Source of the DNA: a virus
Taxonomy: Duplodnaviria > Caudoviricetes
DNA length: 64,000 nucleotides
Strand: one strand, 5' to 3'
Virus record (IMG/VR): IMGVR_UViG_3300034161_000018
Coordinates: 1-64,000 of that record
Positions 3,959 to 49,589 of the stretch are shown here, piece after piece. The first letter of the stretch is position 1. Each line of letters starts with the position of its first letter. The notes under the pieces were generated by a model. The model had not been told where the DNA came from. It did not search any database and saw only the letters and a list, made by a program, of their open reading frames with translations. Position numbers and translations under genes: made by a program.

Positions 3959-4237
3959 TTACAGGTGTTCGGCGCTTTCGATCAGGATTTCATCGTGACG
4001 CCCGCGACTACCCACGCCGAAAGTTTCGTCGAAACCGGAACACGCAACGCGGCGATCCCACAGTTCAACGGTGCCAGCGGAAATAGGTTTGCCGGTCGGG
4101 ACTTTCGCGAGAGACGTTGCAGCCGAAACGAATTGAGTTGCCTGTTCATTGCTGAAAGCGTGCGAAAACAAAATCGGCAGTTGAACAACGTCGCCATTTT
4201 CACGAACAACTTCAACAATCACATAACGCATTTTCAT
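3959..4237 (-). CDS. small conserved-type phage protein; resembles N-terminus of 21758..22744
   Basis: MKMRYVIV..LPILFS..ISAG..GSRG..D pattern. Confidence 0.75.
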   Translation of the reverse strand: MKMRYVIVEVVRENGDVVQLPILFSHAFSNEQATQFVSAATSLAKVPTGKPISAGTVELWDRRVACSGFDETFGVGSRGRHDEILIESAEHL

Positions 4238-4974: not shown

Positions 4975-5008
4975 TTTACTACTTCCTTTTATTAGGTGTA
5001 CCGGGCAA

Positions 5009-5392
5009 TTACAGCCCGGCTTCTTTCATTGCTTTTTCGAGTTTTTCAGGATCGGTGATTCGCAACAGTGCGTACACAAACTTTTGAATGTGTTCGCGGG
5101 CCATGCGTTGCAATTCGTCTTGAGCTTTCGGCGCCCCGAGGTGTTCGCCCGGTTCCGATTGGAATTCTGCAAGCGCGATTCCGTCAATGCACTTGTTGCC
5201 TTCGGTGCTCAGGTACAGCGTGCCATACGCGGTGTTATCCGGGTACGAACGCGAGCACAGATTGAAAAGCGTAATGTCGAAATCCATCTTGCCCATGCAG
5301 TCCGGTTTCCAATCGGTCTGGCTGATACACGCATCGGTCACGGCGAATGAAAGTTTGTTTAAGCGTTCCAGTTGTTCCATTTCTACGCTCAT
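5009..5392 (-). CDS. hypothetical protein
   Basis: ORF 5009..5518; start moved to MSVEME (ATGA overlap). Confidence 0.75.
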   Translation of the reverse strand: MSVEMEQLERLNKLSFAVTDACISQTDWKPDCMGKMDFDITLFNLCSRSYPDNTAYGTLYLSTEGNKCIDGIALAEFQSEPGEHLGAPKAQDELQRMAREHIQKFVYALLRITDPEKLEKAMKEAGL

Positions 5393-5805
5393 GATTTCAA
5401 TACCGCGCTCAGTTCGGCCATCAGGTCTTTCACGCGAGCCAGTTTGGTTTCGGCTTCGCGCAATTGCGATTCGGTGTAGGTCGGAATCATTGGCGTGTTG
5501 CCCACGCTGGTTTCGCAAGTCACGCCTTCAAACGCTTTGCGAATGTCGCCAACGTCTTTGCTGAATGAATAACCTTGTGAACCGGAGGCGAGCCAGCCGC
5601 AAATCAGGTGCATGTTTGTGTAGCCGATTTTTACGGCAGTGCCACCGCAAAGCAAAAGCGCAAAACCTTCGCCGACGTGCGGAGCCAAATCAACCGGGCC
5701 GGAATTCAAACCAACGCCGTTATAAGTTGGCGCGGGCTTTTCGGTTTTCGGCGTATCCCAATCGGCGGGTTCGTAACCATCGTTGTTGATAAACGGGCCG
5801 GGCAT
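5389..5805 (-). CDS. hypothetical protein
   Basis: 138-aa ORF. Confidence 0.8.
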   Translation of the reverse strand: MPGPFINNDGYEPADWDTPKTEKPAPTYNGVGLNSGPVDLAPHVGEGFALLLCGGTAVKIGYTNMHLICGWLASGSQGYSFSKDVGDIRKAFEGVTCETSVGNTPMIPTYTESQLREAETKLARVKDLMAELSAVLKS

Positions 5806-5815
5806 GGCAAAGTCC

Positions 5816-6031
5816 TTATGCGGAAGGCAGGCAGAGAGTGAAGTATTTCACATCCGGTTGTTTTTCTTTCATGGTTGCATGCAGAGCAATTTCGGCACGC
5901 GTGCAATCGTCAACCGCGACGTGGAACGACATTGCAGACGGGGCTTGCGTTTGAACAACGGTGCCGCCGAAACGGGAACCGGTAATGTTTTGAACAAACA
6001 TCCATAATACAAATGCGCCAGTCATGAACAA
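5816..6031 (-). CDS. small membrane or secreted protein
   Basis: 71 aa, hydrophobic N-terminus. Confidence 0.6.
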   Translation of the reverse strand: MFMTGAFVLWMFVQNITGSRFGGTVVQTQAPSAMSFHVAVDDCTRAEIALHATMKEKQPDVKYFTLCLPSA

Positions 6032-6240
6032 TGCTCCAAGTTATTCCGGATGCGCTCCAATTGATCGGCGCGCCAATTGAGATATTTGATAATGCCAACC
6101 ACGCGTTCGGCGTAGGTCTGCTTTGCGATCATGGTGTGGAACAGAACCGGAACCGCAATCTTTTCTTTTCCGGTTTCAACGCAGATGAATACGGCAGGGC
6201 CGCGATCAGTGAAATCGTTATACGTGCTCCACTTTCGCAT
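6022..6240 (-). CDS. hypothetical protein
   Basis: ORF 6022..6342; start moved to MRKWST (AGGGGA RBS). Confidence 0.65.
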   Translation of the reverse strand: MRKWSTYNDFTDRGPAVFICVETGKEKIAVPVLFHTMIAKQTYAERVVGIIKYLNWRADQLERIRNNLEHCS

Positions 6241-6637
6241 GGTGTCGTTTCCCCTTTCTAAGTTTTGCAATGGTCGGGCCTGCATACGCTGTGTGGGTAC
6301 GCTTCGCCAACAGTTTGAACAACGCCGTAAACACAACATCACTTCGGTCGCGCATATGAGTCGTGCGAAACTTTACGCGATTGCGCGTCGTCTGGTTGTA
6401 AATCAAATCAGCCTTTATGATCCAGCTAGACGGCAGACCGCCCCAGCCCGTTTTCTGAAAACGTTTTGGAACGTAAATGTCTACCGCTACGCAATAGAGG
6501 TTGAAACCAGAGGCGAGCTTGAGTTGAAAGACGTGCGGGTCAACTGCAAAAATTGGAATGCGCGTGCTATCACAACAGTCCCATATATGGTCGTATTTGT
6601 GAAAGCCTAAAATGATGCGCTGTAGTTTCTTTTCCAT
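6218..6637 (-). CDS. hypothetical protein
   Basis: 139-aa ORF with GAGG RBS. Confidence 0.75.
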   Translation of the reverse strand: MEKKLQRIILGFHKYDHIWDCCDSTRIPIFAVDPHVFQLKLASGFNLYCVAVDIYVPKRFQKTGWGGLPSSWIIKADLIYNQTTRNRVKFRTTHMRDRSDVVFTALFKLLAKRTHTAYAGPTIAKLRKGKRHHAKVEHV

Positions 6638-6655
6638 ACTCGCCTCGGTGTTCGA

Positions 6656-7150
6656 TTACGCCAACTTCTGGATTTCCTGAAACGTAATCCACTTCGATTC
6701 GCAGCCGGTATGCAACCAGCAAACTTTTACGCCAACGCCGAAACCATTGGTGACGATTTCGGTAATGCGGCCCAGTGCATAAACTTCGACCAGCACTTCG
6801 TCGGTTTCGAGAGTGCGCGGCTTATCACCAAACACTTCGATATGGCCGGACAGGTCGTTGCAGTATTTTTCTGGAACGCGAACAGTCTCGCCGATGGAAA
6901 GAGAAACAACCGGCTTTGCGTTTTCTTCTTTCAGTGTTTCGCCCGCAACCGCCAGAGTATCTTTGGTTACAGGAATACCCGCGTCTTCCAGAGCAATGCA
7001 GATTTCCAGCCAGTTAATGATTTGGCTGTTCATGCTGCGGTGATGGTCTTTTGCGAGTTGAGCAATCTTTTCGCGCATGTCATCCGGCAGGCGGATAACG
7101 AATTTGTCAGCGGTACGGGACGAGTAGACTGCTTGTTTGTTCGGGGTCAT
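6656..7150 (-). CDS. Arc-family ribbon-helix-helix regulator, AmrZ/AlgZ-like N-terminal domain
   Basis: [37 protein letters not shown] closely matches Pseudomonas AmrZ as recalled ([37 protein letters not shown]); C-terminus unrelated. Confidence 0.9.
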
Positions 7151-7171
7151 TGCAATATCCAAGAATCAAAT

Positions 7172-7201
7172 GTGAGTGAAGGGAGCCGTTGGCCGACTCC
7201 C
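7172..7201 (-). terminator. possible intrinsic terminator
   Basis: GGGAGTCGG-CCAA-CGGCTCCC hairpin with weak T tail. Confidence 0.45.
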
Positions 7202-7218
7202 GGTGTTGCTCGGTTTGT

Positions 7219-8403
7219 TTATTCCGGACTAACGCGCCCGAAGTAAACGGTTTTCAGTTTGAAGCGGCTCAGCGCATTTCGCACTGCGGCACTTGGATGT
7301 TTACAGGTTTGTTCAACCTTCACGCTTTCGCGGCGGATCGGCACCATCATGTTTGCCATGATGTTTACGCTGGTATCCGGAATGCCGATTTCGTCTTGCA
7401 GGAAAGCCATTTCGCCATTCTCGGCACTCGACATGGAAGCGGTCGGGCGCTGGTCATCGAAAAACTTTTCGAGAGTTTCCGCAACACTGCCGTTGCTCAT
7501 TTCGTCGAAGTCCAGACGCATTGCCATCGGCGCGAATGTCGATTCGGCCAAATCGAATTCAGCACAACCGCGAGAATGTTCGTCGATGATTGTCAGCAAA
7601 TGCAATTGCTCGACGACTTCCAGTTGGTTGTCCACCAGTTCGGAAATCGGAACGTAAACATTCACCGCCCATTCAACGTACTGGCCTTGGGTGTTCACCG
7701 CTTCGACCAGCAAACAATCGAGACGTTTGAACTGTTTCAGGCCGTCGATATATTTGAGCAACGGTGGGAACGGTTTCGATTCTTTCGTTTTCACTGCATC
7801 GAGAGAATCGTCGGCTTCTTCACTTTCCGTTTCCGCAACCGCTGGCCGTTTGCCCGCCATCGGGTCTTTGCCGCGACGTTTCAGGCCGCTAGGTTTTTCG
7901 TCGCCCGACATTTTGTCCAGAAACGCCGCGACCGGGTTGGTTTTGTCGTCGGTCGCCACCTTATCCAGAAAGGCAGCTTTCCGCGAATTGGCTGGTTCTT
8001 CTTTTGGTTCAACGTCAATGCCGTTGTCTTTGTCCACTTCGGCGATCAGCATTGCAAACAGTTGCGTTTCGTTCTTCACGCGAGCGCTCGGTTTGTCGGC
8101 GTCGATCAGATTGGTGAAACACGATTCGCGAATGGTTTCTGCACTAACATCATTGTCAGCACGGAAAATCGACGTAACTGTTTTGCCCGGACGGTGAATA
8201 ACGATTGTGCCGTTCACCACAATGAGCCACTGGCCGTTGATTGGTTGTTGCACGCGCTCAACTTTGACCATTGATTTGTGAGCAACGAGCGCGCTTTTGA
8301 CTTTGCGCTCCAGAAGAATCGTCCAGCTTTTCTGCAAAGCACTGCCGACTTCTGCCGGTGCGTCTTCGCGGCCCGAAACATCAGATACGAAATTGCCTGT
8401 CAT
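7219..8403 (-). CDS. hypothetical protein (N-terminal VSDVSGRE motif)
   Basis: 394-aa ORF; AAGGA RBS. Confidence 0.9.
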   Translation of the reverse strand: MTGNFVSDVSGREDAPAEVGSALQKSWTILLERKVKSALVAHKSMVKVERVQQPINGQWLIVVNGTIVIHRPGKTVTSIFRADNDVSAETIRESCFTNLIDADKPSARVKNETQLFAMLIAEVDKDNGIDVEPKEEPANSRKAAFLDKVATDDKTNPVAAFLDKMSGDEKPSGLKRRGKDPMAGKRPAVAETESEEADDSLDAVKTKESKPFPPLLKYIDGLKQFKRLDCLLVEAVNTQGQYVEWAVNVYVPISELVDNQLEVVEQLHLLTIIDEHSRGCAEFDLAESTFAPMAMRLDFDEMSNGSVAETLEKFFDDQRPTASMSSAENGEMAFLQDEIGIPDTSVNIMANMMVPIRRESVKVEQTCKHPSAAVRNALSRFKLKTVYFGRVSPE

Positions 8404-8430
8404 GATTGCATTCCTTTATTTGCGATTGGA

Positions 8431-8703
8431 TTAGTGAAGCGTTTCCAGCGATTGGCCGAAGTCCAAAACGTTTGCCAGTGCATCGAACGTGAATGAACCG
8501 TCCGATTTAATTGTTTGGTAAACGTCGTTGTCCACCGAAACGATCAGGTCAACACGCGACTCGAAACGGGAGCCGATTTGTTTATCGACGTGCAAGACGC
8601 GCCAGTCTTCAAACTGACCTTGATGGGACAAAACTTTTTCAAGCTGTTCCGGTGCCAACACTGAAAGGGCAGGCACTCGATACACATACACATAGGATTT
8701 CAT
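8431..8703 (-). CDS. hypothetical protein
   Basis: 90-aa ORF; GAGG RBS. Confidence 0.75.
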   Translation of the reverse strand: MKSYVYVYRVPALSVLAPEQLEKVLSHQGQFEDWRVLHVDKQIGSRFESRVDLIVSVDNDVYQTIKSDGSFTFDALANVLDFGQSLETLH

Positions 8704-8735
8704 AACTGCCTCTCCAGTGTTGGTGAATGGAATGT

Positions 8736-9659
8736 TTATTCGGTTGTAGGGTTAAGCGCTTTCGCCACGTTCTGCATTCCCAACGTTTTGATTACGCCTT
8801 TGAATTCTTGCAGCGACAACTGCATGCCGGGCGCGTCGGTTTTCTTGTTCGGAATCTTTCCGCGCTCAAGCATCGACACATACATTTGGCTTTCCCCAAT
8901 CAGCTTGCCCGCGTCGGTCTGGTTGATACCGGCTTCGGTGCGCAGCTTCTTGAATTCCTTGCCAACTGTTTTGGCGATTTCCAACAGGCCCACGGGTGGC
9001 CGCGCTTTCTCAGGCTTTGCAGATTTCGACGGTTTCACCGAACTATTTGGTTCTGCACACGACACGCGACCAGTCGTTGCGCCAGTGGTAGACATTGCCG
9101 GACGAAACTTTTCCATTTCGTTCAGATGTTCTTCCAACTGTTTCGGTGTCCAGCTTTCCACAACGCCGCTCGCCATTGATTCTGGCCCCGGATGTTTGCT
9201 GGTGAATTCGTAACCGACAATCGGATCACCGACCGACCACATGACGCGGAAGTCATGTTTCTTTTCTTCCGGCAAGATTACGTTAACACCTTTGCACTGC
9301 TCGCGCATTTCTTTCAGCGATTCGCGCATTTGCTCACGGTCGCCCAAAGGTGATTCCGGATGCAACAGATTCGGATAGTCCAGCACTTTGATTTCGTGGA
9401 ATTGCGGCGCACTCAACGGTTGCTTACCGATTTCGACAATGCGCTCAACACTCAAGCCCCACAGTTCCGCCAGATCACCGACCGAAGCTTTGCAGGTCAG
9501 CGCAAAGCGAATGGCCTGATTGCGATGCCACGACAACTTTTCCAAAACGCGCTGTAAAGCTTTCGCGTCCTCGGCGGTAAACATTGCGCCCGTACCGATT
9601 ACATGAGACAGGCGGTCGATGTTGTCGCGCATTTCCGAAACAGTTTGCACACGTTCCAT
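8736..9659 (-). CDS. protein with C-terminal XRE/Cro-type HTH
   Basis: VGKEFKKLRTEAGINQTDAGKLIGESQMYVSMLERGK fits XRE HTH pattern. Confidence 0.8.
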   Translation of the reverse strand: MERVQTVSEMRDNIDRLSHVIGTGAMFTAEDAKALQRVLEKLSWHRNQAIRFALTCKASVGDLAELWGLSVERIVEIGKQPLSAPQFHEIKVLDYPNLLHPESPLGDREQMRESLKEMREQCKGVNVILPEEKKHDFRVMWSVGDPIVGYEFTSKHPGPESMASGVVESWTPKQLEEHLNEMEKFRPAMSTTGATTGRVSCAEPNSSVKPSKSAKPEKARPPVGLLEIAKTVGKEFKKLRTEAGINQTDAGKLIGESQMYVSMLERGKIPNKKTDAPGMQLSLQEFKGVIKTLGMQNVAKALNPTTE

Positions 9660-13592: not shown

Positions 13593-13704
13593 AACATCCT
13601 CTAAGTCGTAAGTGTTAAATCTGAGGCACAGTCTCCTCAACGTATACATTGTAACACAGTGGGCACCCTTGGCAATCCATAAGCCTTACGGGATACCGTA
13701 AGTT
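13593..13704 (-). promoter_or_regulatory. promoter cassette 1: sigma70-like promoter between two inverted 20-bp sites
   Basis: -35 TTGCCA (13670-75), 16 bp, extended -10 TGtTACAAT (13648-53). Sites 13593-612 (- strand CTTACGACTTAGAGGATGTT) and 13685-704 (+ strand CTTACGGGATACCGTAAGTT). Confidence 0.85.
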
Positions 13705-14471: not shown

Positions 14472-15809
14472 TTACTCGTTTTCGATCAAGACGTGCGGAA
14501 CAAACCGTTCGTTCTTGATGCCAAGCACCGGCGAATCGAATTCGCGAATGCAGAGCGTTGCGGCAGTTGCCGATTTCATCGTGTTCAGGTTGTCCGCAAC
14601 ATCCGGCACCATAAACATTCCGATGATGAAGTTTTCGCGACCGGGCACTTGATAAGGTGGGACGTAGTGCTGAAACACTTTGTCCTCCGGATACGGGCCG
14701 TCGGTTTTGAATTGCGTAGCGCCAGCGCCGTTGATGATTTCGATGTTGCAACTCATGCGGCCAACTTTTGGTTTGGCAACATACGGCAAGTGGTAATCAG
14801 TGAACGGTTTGGTATCGACGTAAGTTTTGATCGCGGGGACTTCTTTGTACTTCGCGTAAAACTCTTTGTCGTTTTCAAACAGATGGGTGACGTAGGCCCA
14901 AATGCCTTTGTTCGACGCAAACCAACGCCACGCCGGTTCAAAGAAAGTCAGGTTGCCTGCCCAGTTCGCCCATTCTTTGTAGGCTTGCGGGAACGACTCG
15001 ACCATTTCTTCCCACGGCACCAGCGCGAAGATTACCGAAAGGTGATCGTTGCCAACCACGAACGGCAAACTTTTGCTTTCAAAGTCGTAGTCGATTTCGT
15101 TTATGTCGGTGAACAGGCAGATATTGTTTTCGCCGAGAATCTGCGCAATGACTTCACAGGTCGCCATGTCTTCAAACGATTTGCTGTCGAAGATTACGGC
15201 GGCAGTTCCCGGCATTGGGCCGAGGTCGGAAATCAAAGTTTGCAGCAACGGATAAAAACTATTCAGTTGCAGTTCAATGTCGCCGGTCACTTGTTCGCAA
15301 ACGTGGTTTTGCACGGCCACGGATTCAAACAGCATGGTCGGAGTGTCGCCGTTGAATTCGTAGATGCCGACGATTTCTTCTTTCACCGGATCGAATGCGG
15401 CATCAAAGCGACCGTAGATCGACTGGCGTGCCGAACCGAAATCGCGATACGAAAACTTTGCGTAGTCGATGAAGTACGGATGTTTGCGCAGGAACTCACA
15501 GCCGACGTAGTGCATCAGCGTGTCGTTCGATTCGCCAAACAAACGGCCAACCGCTTCGACCAGCATTGCGTAGGCCAGTTCAAATTGCGTTTCGATCTTC
15601 GCGCAGGAACTCAGGCCCAGTTCGTAAACCGGCATGGCCGCACTGTTTGCCAACGGGAAAGAAAAATACTCTTTTACGTCAGCGTGAAACTCGCCATCGC
15701 TTTGGCTTTCTGGACGCGGAGCTTCGCGGTAAAACGCTTGAGTCCACGGCAGTTCTTCAACCATCAGAGCATTGAGGTTGAAATTGATGTTGTGGTAATT
15801 GCAACGCAT
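14472..15809 (-). CDS. glutathionylspermidine synthase family ATP-grasp protein (YgiC/YjfC-like)
   Basis: YGRFD, IYEFNGDTPTMLFES, LVPWE, FEPAWRWFASNKGI, KPKVGR motifs. Confidence 0.9.
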   Translation of the reverse strand: MRCNYHNINFNLNALMVEELPWTQAFYREAPRPESQSDGEFHADVKEYFSFPLANSAAMPVYELGLSSCAKIETQFELAYAMLVEAVGRLFGESNDTLMHYVGCEFLRKHPYFIDYAKFSYRDFGSARQSIYGRFDAAFDPVKEEIVGIYEFNGDTPTMLFESVAVQNHVCEQVTGDIELQLNSFYPLLQTLISDLGPMPGTAAVIFDSKSFEDMATCEVIAQILGENNICLFTDINEIDYDFESKSLPFVVGNDHLSVIFALVPWEEMVESFPQAYKEWANWAGNLTFFEPAWRWFASNKGIWAYVTHLFENDKEFYAKYKEVPAIKTYVDTKPFTDYHLPYVAKPKVGRMSCNIEIINGAGATQFKTDGPYPEDKVFQHYVPPYQVPGRENFIIGMFMVPDVADNLNTMKSATAATLCIREFDSPVLGIKNERFVPHVLIENE

Positions 15810-28586: not shown

Positions 28587-28700
28587 AACTTCCAGTAAGT
28601 CGTAAGTGTTAACCTTCGGGCTGGTGTTTCTCCAGCAGGGTCATTGTATCACAAACGACAGTAGGCCGGAAGCTCTTACGCTTACAGCCTACTGGAAGTT
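28587..28700 (-). promoter_or_regulatory. promoter cassette 2
   Basis: -35 TTCCGG (28666-71), 17 bp, TGaTACAAT (28643-48). Sites 28587-606 (- CTTACGACTTACTGGAAGTT) and 28681-700 (+ CTTACAGCCTACTGGAAGTT). Confidence 0.85.
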
Positions 28701-48104: not shown

Positions 48105-49589
48105 TTAGTTGCGCGCTGCGGTCACTGCCGCCGAAACGGCTTCGGTGCAGATTGCAGATTTCTTGGCGAGGTCAATCAGGCGCTCGCGAATCTTTTTGTC
48201 GGTGAAACCTTTGTGGGCAATATCAACCGCCACACAAATGCGTTCCAGTTCTTCGCGGGTCGTGTGCGACAAACTATCGCGCAGCGAAATGATTTCGTTG
48301 GATTCTTTCGGTTCGGCGAAGTCGTCATCTTCTTCGTCGTCTTCGTCTTCGTCCTCGAAATCTTCTTCGTCTTCTTCTTCGTCGTCCACCAGATCAAAAG
48401 TTTCGTTGAACCGTTCCTGTGCCGCGTGCAAATCAGCCTCGGAACTGGCAATTAAAACAGTGACCATCACGGTTTCGTTGTCGTGAACAGTTTTCGCGTC
48501 CAGAACAACAACCGAAGGGTCAGCGGTGAACGCTTTGTGCATTGCGAGCTTCGCGACTTCGTGGATGCTCTCAACTTTTTCGTTGCTCAGCAGAATGCGC
48601 GCCGGGGTTTCTTCTTCTTCTTCGTCGTCGATTTCTTCCGCTTCAAATTCGTCATCGTCCGAATCATCTTCGTCTTCGTCGTCTTCCATTTCGACTGTTG
48701 GGTCGAAGCCGAAGTCTTCCCACTCGCAAACATTTGCAACGAACGGTTCAAACTCCAGCAAAATATCTGAACCTTCGGTCAGGCGGCTTTCGTCCGCCAA
48801 ATCCGTAATCGCATCTTTCAGTTCACTGAGAATCTGGAAAGGCGATTCAAAGTAAGCTGGTTTGAAACGCTCGCTCGGAATGGCCGGAATGTTTTCGACC
48901 GATTCTTTGAAGTTGTTGCGTTCTTCTTTGCGGCGGTAATCGGCGAAGTCGATCAACTGATAACCGAGTTCGACGATTGAGTCGCGGTCGAAACCGAGTT
49001 TGTTTGGCAGAGTTGCCGGAATGAACGTGGCGCGTTCTTCTTCGGTCGCATCCTGTTTCGGGGTTTTGACTTCCAACCCTTCTACCAGCGACAGCAGCGA
49101 CGAATAGGAAACCAGACGTTTCAAATTGTTTGCAGCAACCGCCAGCGATTCGGTCGGCCAGATACCGATTACTTCACCGCCGAGAGTAACGCGGGTCAAT
49201 TGCAAATCGCCTTCGTAATCTTCCGGCGAGAATTCGTTGCCGTCCACGTCGTCGCGAACCACGATCAAAACATCACCGTCTTCGTCCGGCTCCAGTTCGT
49301 CGCGGCATTCTTCCAGTTCTTCCAACAAACCGGAAACCAGTTCTTCGCCTTCAACCAGCGTCAAACATTTTGCTGGCGAGTAACCGACGAAAAGATTCAC
49401 TTCCAAATCTTTGTTCAACGTCGCCAGCAGGTAATCGTTTTCGCGACCTTCTTTATCGGCGGCGTCCGGATTGATTTCAGGGTAACTACCCACAACTGCG
49501 GCGAACCCATAAAGTGCTTGCGGTTGCACTTCGCCGTTTTCGTCCATTGCGCGAATGATTACACGTTGGCCGTTTTGGTATTGTTGCAT
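48105..49589 (-). CDS. very acidic protein with possible C-terminal HeH/Rho-N-like motif; first gene after cassette 4
   Basis: 494 aa; long D/E tracts; LSHTTREELERICVAVDI..KIRERL. Confidence 0.9.
   Translation of the reverse strand: MQQYQNGQRVIIRAMDENGEVQPQALYGFAAVVGSYPEINPDAADKEGRENDYLLATLNKDLEVNLFVGYSPAKCLTLVEGEELVSGLLEELEECRDELEPDEDGDVLIVVRDDVDGNEFSPEDYEGDLQLTRVTLGGEVIGIWPTESLAVAANNLKRLVSYSSLLSLVEGLEVKTPKQDATEEERATFIPATLPNKLGFDRDSIVELGYQLIDFADYRRKEERNNFKESVENIPAIPSERFKPAYFESPFQILSELKDAITDLADESRLTEGSDILLEFEPFVANVCEWEDFGFDPTVEMEDDEDEDDSDDDEFEAEEIDDEEEEETPARILLSNEKVESIHEVAKLAMHKAFTADPSVVVLDAKTVHDNETVMVTVLIASSEADLHAAQERFNETFDLVDDEEEDEEDFEDEDEDDEEDDDFAEPKESNEIISLRDSLSHTTREELERICVAVDIAHKGFTDKKIRERLIDLAKKSAICTEAVSAAVTAARN

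Follow-up and report, generated by a model that had tools for sequence, protein, structure and literature searches.

An AmrZ-like DNA-reading head on an orphan C-terminal domain in an uncultured jumbo phage

AmrZ stands at the top of the decisions that Pseudomonas takes on motility, biofilm and c-di-GMP and, in P. aeruginosa, on CRISPR-Cas as well. What, then, would a phage do with a protein that carries the DNA-reading part of AmrZ on an unrelated C-terminal half? The question is raised by a gene, here called P0001 after its 164-residue product, in the first 64 kb (the window, that is, the whole stretch that we analyzed) of a virus record that is 274,896 bp long and has terminal repeats. The phage's tail protein is 45%, 37% and 34% identical to those of HRDY3, Lu11 and PaBG, respectively, all of them Pseudomonas phages, and we therefore take the phage to be an uncultured member of that jumbo-phage group; its host is probably Pseudomonas or a close relative. 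A megablast search with positions 5000-9000 of the window against cultured phages gave no match, and the metagenome sequencing runs that matched shared small portions (≤0.14 of the words), with no RNA run among the matches listed.

The reading frame of P0001 comprises 164 codons and a stop (Table 1). We placed its start at the ATG at 7150 rather than the TTG at 7162, because all 11 full-length homologues open with M-x-P-x-K-Q at the same point. These homologues, collected by a word-based search, are 48–97% identical to P0001 and lie on metagenomic contigs of up to 124 kb. Residues 11-49 match the Pfam Arc family (PF03869) with 56.9 bits (cut-off 20.4, E 1.9e-15), the match is repeated at the DNA level with 58.9 bits, and P0001 is the only Arc-domain gene in the whole 274,896-bp genome. 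The protein is a further member of an established concept, the phage homologues of AmrZ, copies of which have already been published and tested, including that of the related jumbo phage PaBG.

Table 1. Features of the P0001 locus and of the window around it
Feature	Position	Strand	Basis or remark
AmrZ-like protein CDS (P0001, 164 aa)	6656..7150	(-)	stop codon 6656-6658 included; 11 full-length homologues, invariant residues in both domains
N-terminal arm and ribbon-helix-helix domain, AmrZ subfamily, residues 1-55	6986..7150	(-)	Pfam Arc 56.9 bits; 3QOQ E 1.6e-15; 68% identity to chromosomal AmrZ orthologue
DNA-reading beta-strand A-D-K-F-V-I-R-L, residues 14-21	7088..7111	(-)	alignment mapped on PMC3325190; K16/V18/R20 = AmrZ K18/V20/R22
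Linker with one predicted helix (63-77), residues 56-80	6911..6985	(-)	AlphaFold2 model m7d90a7a9582e, pLDDT 74-84 there
Orphan C-terminal small beta-barrel (Tudor/SH3-like, as modelled) with inserted helix-loop (~residues 95-118), residues 81-164	6659..6910	(-)	model; VIA-align
GC-rich hairpin in the 68-bp spacer (7151-7218) upstream of the P0001 gene	7181..7201	(-)	sequence; alignment with L002, L011, L012, L013
307-aa protein with C-terminal HTH_3 (residues 237-273)	8736-9659	(-)	Pfam 30 bits; three genes upstream of P0001; position kept in 3 metagenomic relatives
Nearest strong host-type promoter upstream (TTGCCA, 16 nt, TG-n-TACAAT)	13648..13675	(-)	bracketed by 20-bp sites 13593-13612 and 13685-13704
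Glutathionylspermidine synthase homologue	14472-15809	(-)	phrog_6215, E 1.8e-98

To what extent is the head that of AmrZ? Among solved structures the best match to P0001 is AmrZ itself (3QOQ, E 1.6e-15, residues 2-55), the runner-up being Mnt at E 0.19. Over residues 1-57, without a gap, 39 of 57 positions (68%) are identical to a cluster of chromosomal AmrZ orthologues (P0052, with members from Stutzerimonas, Azotobacter and Metapseudomonas), and the bacterial relatives of the head all belong to the Pseudomonadaceae. AmrZ uses K18, V20 and R22 for its base contacts, and with these it reads two GGC half-sites around a 5-bp A-tract (GGC-AAAAC-GCC); it contacts the backbone with S13, R28, S41, M42, N43 and S44, and Y11, R14, E25 and a salt bridge between H39 and E51 play a supporting part (PMC3325190). 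When the 3QOQ alignment is mapped onto this numbering, the base-reading residues reappear as K16, V18 and R20 of P0001, and Y11, S13, R14, R28, H39, S41, M42, N43, S44 and E51 are also kept, with S11, R12, R26 and S39-S42 as the P0001 numbering on the backbone side. The sole change in the contact set is conservative, from E25 to D23. These data bear out an earlier note on this DNA, which had claimed that the N-terminal ~50 residues match AmrZ with equivalents of K18, V20 and R22, and its description of the product as a phage look-alike of AmrZ with intact reading residues holds for every published contact except E25.

The conservation extends well beyond this one protein. The base-reading and backbone-contact residues are invariant across the 11 homologues of P0001, and the strand motif S-R-[TS]-A-D-K-F-V-x-R runs through the collected family without exception (133 of 133 sequences). 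Helix 2 of P0001, unlike that of AmrZ, carries a family-specific invariant pair, W47 and C51. P0001 thus resembles chromosomal AmrZ (AlgZ, 3QOQ, PMC3325190) in its N-terminal arm, beta-strand, helix 1, start of helix 2 and DNA contacts; however, the chromosomal protein is ~108 aa long and has a helical tetramerisation domain and the sequence Q-x-N-A-L, while the phage-encoded protein, at 164 aa, has neither. The likeness to Arc and Mnt of P22 is that of a shared Pfam family and fold, and Mnt likewise has a C-terminal oligomerisation domain after its ribbon-helix-helix head, but both are distant (E 0.19 for Mnt), read DNA with other beta-strand residues and act on the phage's own operators.

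Beyond the head the picture is entirely different. BLAST similarity to AmrZ stops at residue 57, profile-profile comparison (hhalign) of the P0001 tail with the bacterial AmrZ tail gives a probability of 0.1%, and the structural model shows a beta-barrel where AmrZ has its helical C-terminal tetramerisation domain, which P0001 lacks; the claim that the C-terminal ~110 residues are unrelated to AmrZ is thereby upheld. An exhaustive phmmer search with residues 56-164 against 1.84 billion representatives returned nothing beyond P0001's own cluster, and the tail domain is seen only in ~12 metagenomic relatives. It nonetheless has residues that are invariant among the 11 homologues, including G87, E88, W145, H147, S152, W154 and I155, and is therefore under selection.

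The AlphaFold2 model of P0001 has a mean pLDDT of 72, with ~80-88 in the tail barrel; the ribbon is poorly modelled, as expected because the domain is an obligate dimer. Structural alignment of residues 81-164 (VIA-align) gave Z scores of 8.0 to the Tudor domain of ERCC6-L2 (6hq9_B, rmsd 1.9, 57 residues aligned) and 7.7 to the Tudor domain of SMN (4qq6_A), with KOW, chromo and PWWP domains slightly lower, values to be read with the tool's warning that a Z under 8 may reflect no more than a common arrangement. Foldseek found no match to the tail model in the PDB at E ≤ 0.001, and a feature search of the atlas with the tail yielded nothing usable, the structural rows for PWWP, DUF3310, DUF1642 and Chromo reaching TM values of only ~0.5. 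From the model we read the tail as a small SH3/Tudor-like barrel, with a score at the common-arrangement level. Complex prediction with two copies of the tail (score 0.02, mark 0.42) speaks neither for nor against self-association, and the invariant patch of W145, H147 and W154 may recruit a further partner, which could be a nucleic acid or a protein of host or phage.

It is instructive to compare P0001 with phage proteins whose activity has been studied. The work of Borges and colleagues on mobile AmrZ homologues reportedly appeared in 2020. Such homologues were described there in 14 phages and plasmids of Pseudomonas, and their DNA-contact residues were noted to show "perfect conservation"; an amrZ deletion was complemented by five of the six mobile homologues tested and not by the sixth, and those from PaBG, phi3 and JBD68 acted as repressors of the type I-F Csy complex, i.e. 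CRISPR-Cas (Borges et al., bioRxiv 10.1101/673095). Like P0001, the PaBG, phi3 and JBD68 proteins are phage-borne, AmrZ-homologous ribbon-helix-helix proteins with the contact residues kept, and PaBG is a jumbo-phage relative. The PaBG copy, however, aligns with P0001 only in the head (57% identity over residues 9-73), and the P0001 tail is a different, orphan domain. A 2026 paper describes Gp53 of PhiPA1019, a ribbon-helix-helix protein that is made early and is more similar to AmrZ than to Arc, which binds the fleQ, pslA, amrZ and ftsZ promoters and reprograms the host cell, and which is reported as not functionally equivalent to AmrZ (PMC13650114). Gp53 differs from P0001 in its length, 126 against 164 aa, and in that it also represses ftsZ.

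The nearest relative of the head in a cultured phage is the Arc-like protein of HRDY3 (XDJ14992.1, 205 aa), with 72% identity over residues 9-62 and a shared signature in helix 2 and the linker, S-Q-I-I-N-W-L...C...L-E..G-I. Its C-terminal region is longer and cannot be aligned with the P0001 tail (hhalign probability 0.8%). Both phages carry a glutathionylspermidine synthase in the same region, that of HRDY3 lying ~2 kb from its Arc-like gene. In a tree of the head domain, P0001 groups with the HRDY3 copy and not with that of PaBG: the P0001 and HRDY3 families fall on one side of a long branch with support of 100/99, and bacterial AmrZ, the Noxifer family, PaBG and a 27-member phage-type family fall on the other, although details of this tree are unreliable because it has only 56 columns. 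Judged by these sequences, the P0001 gene does not have the look of one recently captured from a host; rather, it seems to have diverged within a lineage of phages with all its DNA contacts unchanged. In a tblastn search AmrZ-like heads turned up in 24 phage records, those of Pseudomonas phages or metagenomic phages without exception, and several were already annotated "alginate and motility regulator". Phage copies of the AmrZ head are thus a documented way to seize AmrZ-level control, and P0001 adds a further uncultured lineage of Lu11/HRDY3-like jumbo phages, without a new kind of biology.

When would the protein be made? Between the host-type promoter at 13675-13648 and the P0001 gene, no comparable promoter was found on the coding strand. 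On sequence grounds this promoter is the likely driver of an early block that holds the P0001 gene, which is therefore most likely an early gene. The hairpin in the spacer upstream of P0001 recurs in five phages (the window and, ~40-70 nt 5' of their Arc-like genes, contigs L002, L011, L012 and L013), with compensatory stem changes (GAGTC/GGCTC versus GAACC/GGTTC). It is probably a terminator or an RNA (processing) element after the preceding gene and not an AmrZ operator.

The same four contigs keep a gene order of ~285-322 aa, 90 aa, ~380-420 aa, ~90 aa, the Arc-like gene and ~141 aa. The ~285-322-aa gene has HTH-type matches in three of the four, and its counterpart in the window is the 307-aa HTH_3 protein, which was sought in PaBG, HRDY3, Noxifer and Lu11 and not found there. 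The ~141-aa gene lies 3' of the Arc-like gene in three of the four contigs, the downstream neighbour being different in L013; in the window a 139-aa gene begins 18 bp downstream of P0001. Twenty ORFs of the window, either neighbours of P0001 or large, were scanned against PHROG and Pfam, and the only matches were the glutathionylspermidine synthase, the HTH_3 domain and two families of unknown function. A gene of 86-91 aa stands between the ~400-aa gene and the Arc-like gene in all four contigs, and none stands there in the window. A 92-aa ORF at 3959-4237 (-) ends with the C-terminal peptide of this small gene (G-S-R-G-R-H-D-E-I-L-I-E-S-A-E-H-L), so the small gene may have moved in the window, or the ORF may be a paralogue. 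Elsewhere, a 494-aa ORF without a family match (48105-49589) has long runs of GAC/GAA-type codons at 48292-48698, acidic in the minus-strand reading.

If the head reads DNA as AmrZ does, where are its sites? Operators of the amrZ1 type were sought across the 275-kb genome, and none lies near the P0001 gene. Over the whole phage genome, GGC-N5-GCC occurs 86 times against an expectation of 69 ± 6, the A-tract versions, GGC-(A-tract)-GCC, 3 times against 6.2, and the exact amrZ1 core 0 times against 0.6. The spacer 5' of the Arc-like gene contains no conserved operator-like sequence in five relatives.

The genome does contain repeated 20-bp cassette sites, and the earlier note had suggested that a link between these and P0001 be tested. 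We counted these with the pattern AACTTCC-nn-TA-nnn-CGT(A/G)AG, also as CGTAAG, the reversed control pattern giving 0-2 hits per genome with both strands summed. The phage studied here has 16 such sites and one Arc-domain gene, and HRDY3 has 11 sites and an Arc-domain gene. Lu11, in contrast, has 8 sites and no Arc-domain gene, while PaBG and Noxifer have the gene and, under this pattern, 0 sites each. Gene and site are therefore not coupled across these genomes, and because Lu11 has sites without the gene, the binder of the 20-bp site is probably another protein. Since, in addition, the conserved positions of the site hold no GGC, the proposed link is disfavoured. A 13-mer from another genome, ATACTTCCGTAAG, shares the words ACTTCC and GTAAG with the cassette site (e.g. 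28587-28606), adjacent there and 8 nt apart here, which may be coincidence.

By analogy with the published systems, we consider it slightly better than an even bet that P0001 acts early in infection by sitting on GGC sites of the AmrZ type in the host chromosome. In that case it would serve as an early-expressed transcription factor, one that belongs to the AmrZ subfamily within the Arc-type ribbon-helix-helix proteins. A pair of its copies would join through this domain, so that their joint beta-sheet could read GGC-type half-sites with K16, V18 and R20 in the manner of AmrZ. The predicted targets are AmrZ-controlled promoters on a Pseudomonas-type chromosome, namely those of motility, exopolysaccharide, c-di-GMP and possibly CRISPR-Cas genes, and the outcome would be a reset of host gene expression early in infection. 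We favour this reading because phage homologues with the same contacts complement an amrZ deletion and Gp53 binds promoters of the AmrZ regulon. The lack of AmrZ-type operators in the phage's own genome, with A-tract sites below expectation, also counts for it, as weak evidence because AmrZ sites are degenerate. Against it count the long branch that separates the P0001 and HRDY3 families from bacterial AmrZ, the lack of the AmrZ C-terminal domain, which AmrZ needs for activation and repression (Xu et al. 2016, as cited in PMC13650114), the non-equivalence of Gp53 and AmrZ, and the one homologue of six that failed to complement. In addition, since helix 2 differs at W47 and C51, the specificity or the partners of P0001 may have drifted.

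P0001 might instead be the phage's own regulator, binding phage sites such as the inverted 20-bp sites around the early promoters to shut early transcription off, with its AmrZ likeness a matter of ancestry only. It is indeed the genome's only Arc-domain gene and one of two recognisable DNA-binding proteins in the early block (the other being the HTH_3 protein), and ribbon-helix-helix proteins often bind repeated sub-sites. We nevertheless think this unlikely, given that site and gene are uncoupled in Lu11, PaBG and Noxifer, that P0001 keeps the GGC-reading residues of AmrZ yet the site's conserved positions lack GGC, and that no conserved operator precedes the Arc-like gene in five relatives. 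It is also conceivable that the protein acts without DNA binding of its own, as a dominant-negative poison that enters mixed dimers or higher oligomers with host AmrZ: a head 68% identical to host-type AmrZ could form such dimers, and a protein without the tetramerisation tail could cap assemblies. This we judge quite improbable, because the DNA-contact residues are strictly kept in 11 of 11 homologues, which argues that DNA binding is selected, and helix 2, part of the dimer core, has the family-specific W47 and C51, unlike AmrZ; moreover, the effect of the published homologues is to make up for a missing amrZ, not to reproduce the phenotype of its deletion (bioRxiv 10.1101/673095). The earlier note had proposed such poisoning, or else the occupation of host AmrZ sites, as a way in which P0001 could remodel the cell surface, for example for superinfection exclusion.

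A ParD-like antitoxin or ParG-like partition protein, whose tail would bind a neighbouring toxin or ATPase, deserves hardly any credence. The Pfam family ParD_like (PF11903) does match P0001 (24.4 bits, cut-off 23), there are matches to PHROG families named "partition protein ATPase" as well, and the 139-aa gene follows closely. But the ParD_like match covers positions 3-41 of the 73-position profile, the shared head only, and is far weaker than the match to Arc and AmrZ; no neighbour matches a toxin or ParA (apart from HTH_3, the neighbours have no recognisable family), and the downstream neighbour is not the same in L013. Both identities were rejected, as the matches come from the shared head alone.

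If P0001 occupies host AmrZ sites, what might its tail contribute? In the host, SadB binds a conserved stretch near the C-terminus of AmrZ (Q91, A94, L95) and sends AmrZ to Lon (PMC12075610). By their tails, the homologues that we collected sort into a single bacterial family and at least five families of the phage type. Of the 76 bacterial-type tails, 70 carry the SadB-binding motif Q-x-N-A-L, and none of the 57 phage-type tails, that of P0001 included, has it. Every phage-type tail collected lacks the motif by which SadB singles out host AmrZ for degradation, and this is the new, if modest, finding here; from it we infer that the phage versions would escape control by SadB and Lon, and P0001 probably escapes SadB-guided degradation in this way, as far as its sequence can tell. 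[quoted passage not shown] 2016, as cited in PMC13650114), so that phage versions may assemble differently. In P0001, the orphan barrel would stand in for the helical segment that serves AmrZ in both tetramerisation and SadB-guided Lon degradation.

Profile comparison of the tail families did not show a shared ancestry of the phage barrel tails: the P0001 tail reached a probability of 27% with the Noxifer tail family and <1% with the remaining families. A second phage-type family, P0081 (from a 267-kb contig), is unrelated in sequence, and its modelled tail is a confident small barrel (pLDDT ~90) with Z scores of 7.5 to NdhS and 6.9 to the KOW domain of NusG. In none of the ~57 phage-type sequences is the host tail retained; another tail, often a small barrel, takes its place, and at least two sequence-unrelated tail families both model as SH3/Tudor/KOW-like barrels. 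On this basis we offer, as a tentative and somewhat doubtful proposal, that phage look-alikes of AmrZ as a class have swapped the AmrZ tail for unrelated small beta-barrels, which would make them protease-proof and let them hold AmrZ sites whatever the surface-sensing state of the host. Should tail replacement make the phage protein immune to turnover by the host, there would be an explanation for the retention of the head, but not of the tail, in phages. A further protein, P0120 (205 aa, from a 279,725-bp contig), has an N-terminal extension of ~80 aa with a precomputed PF04760 match, an AmrZ-like head and a barrel-like tail, and its branch in the tree of head domains is very long.
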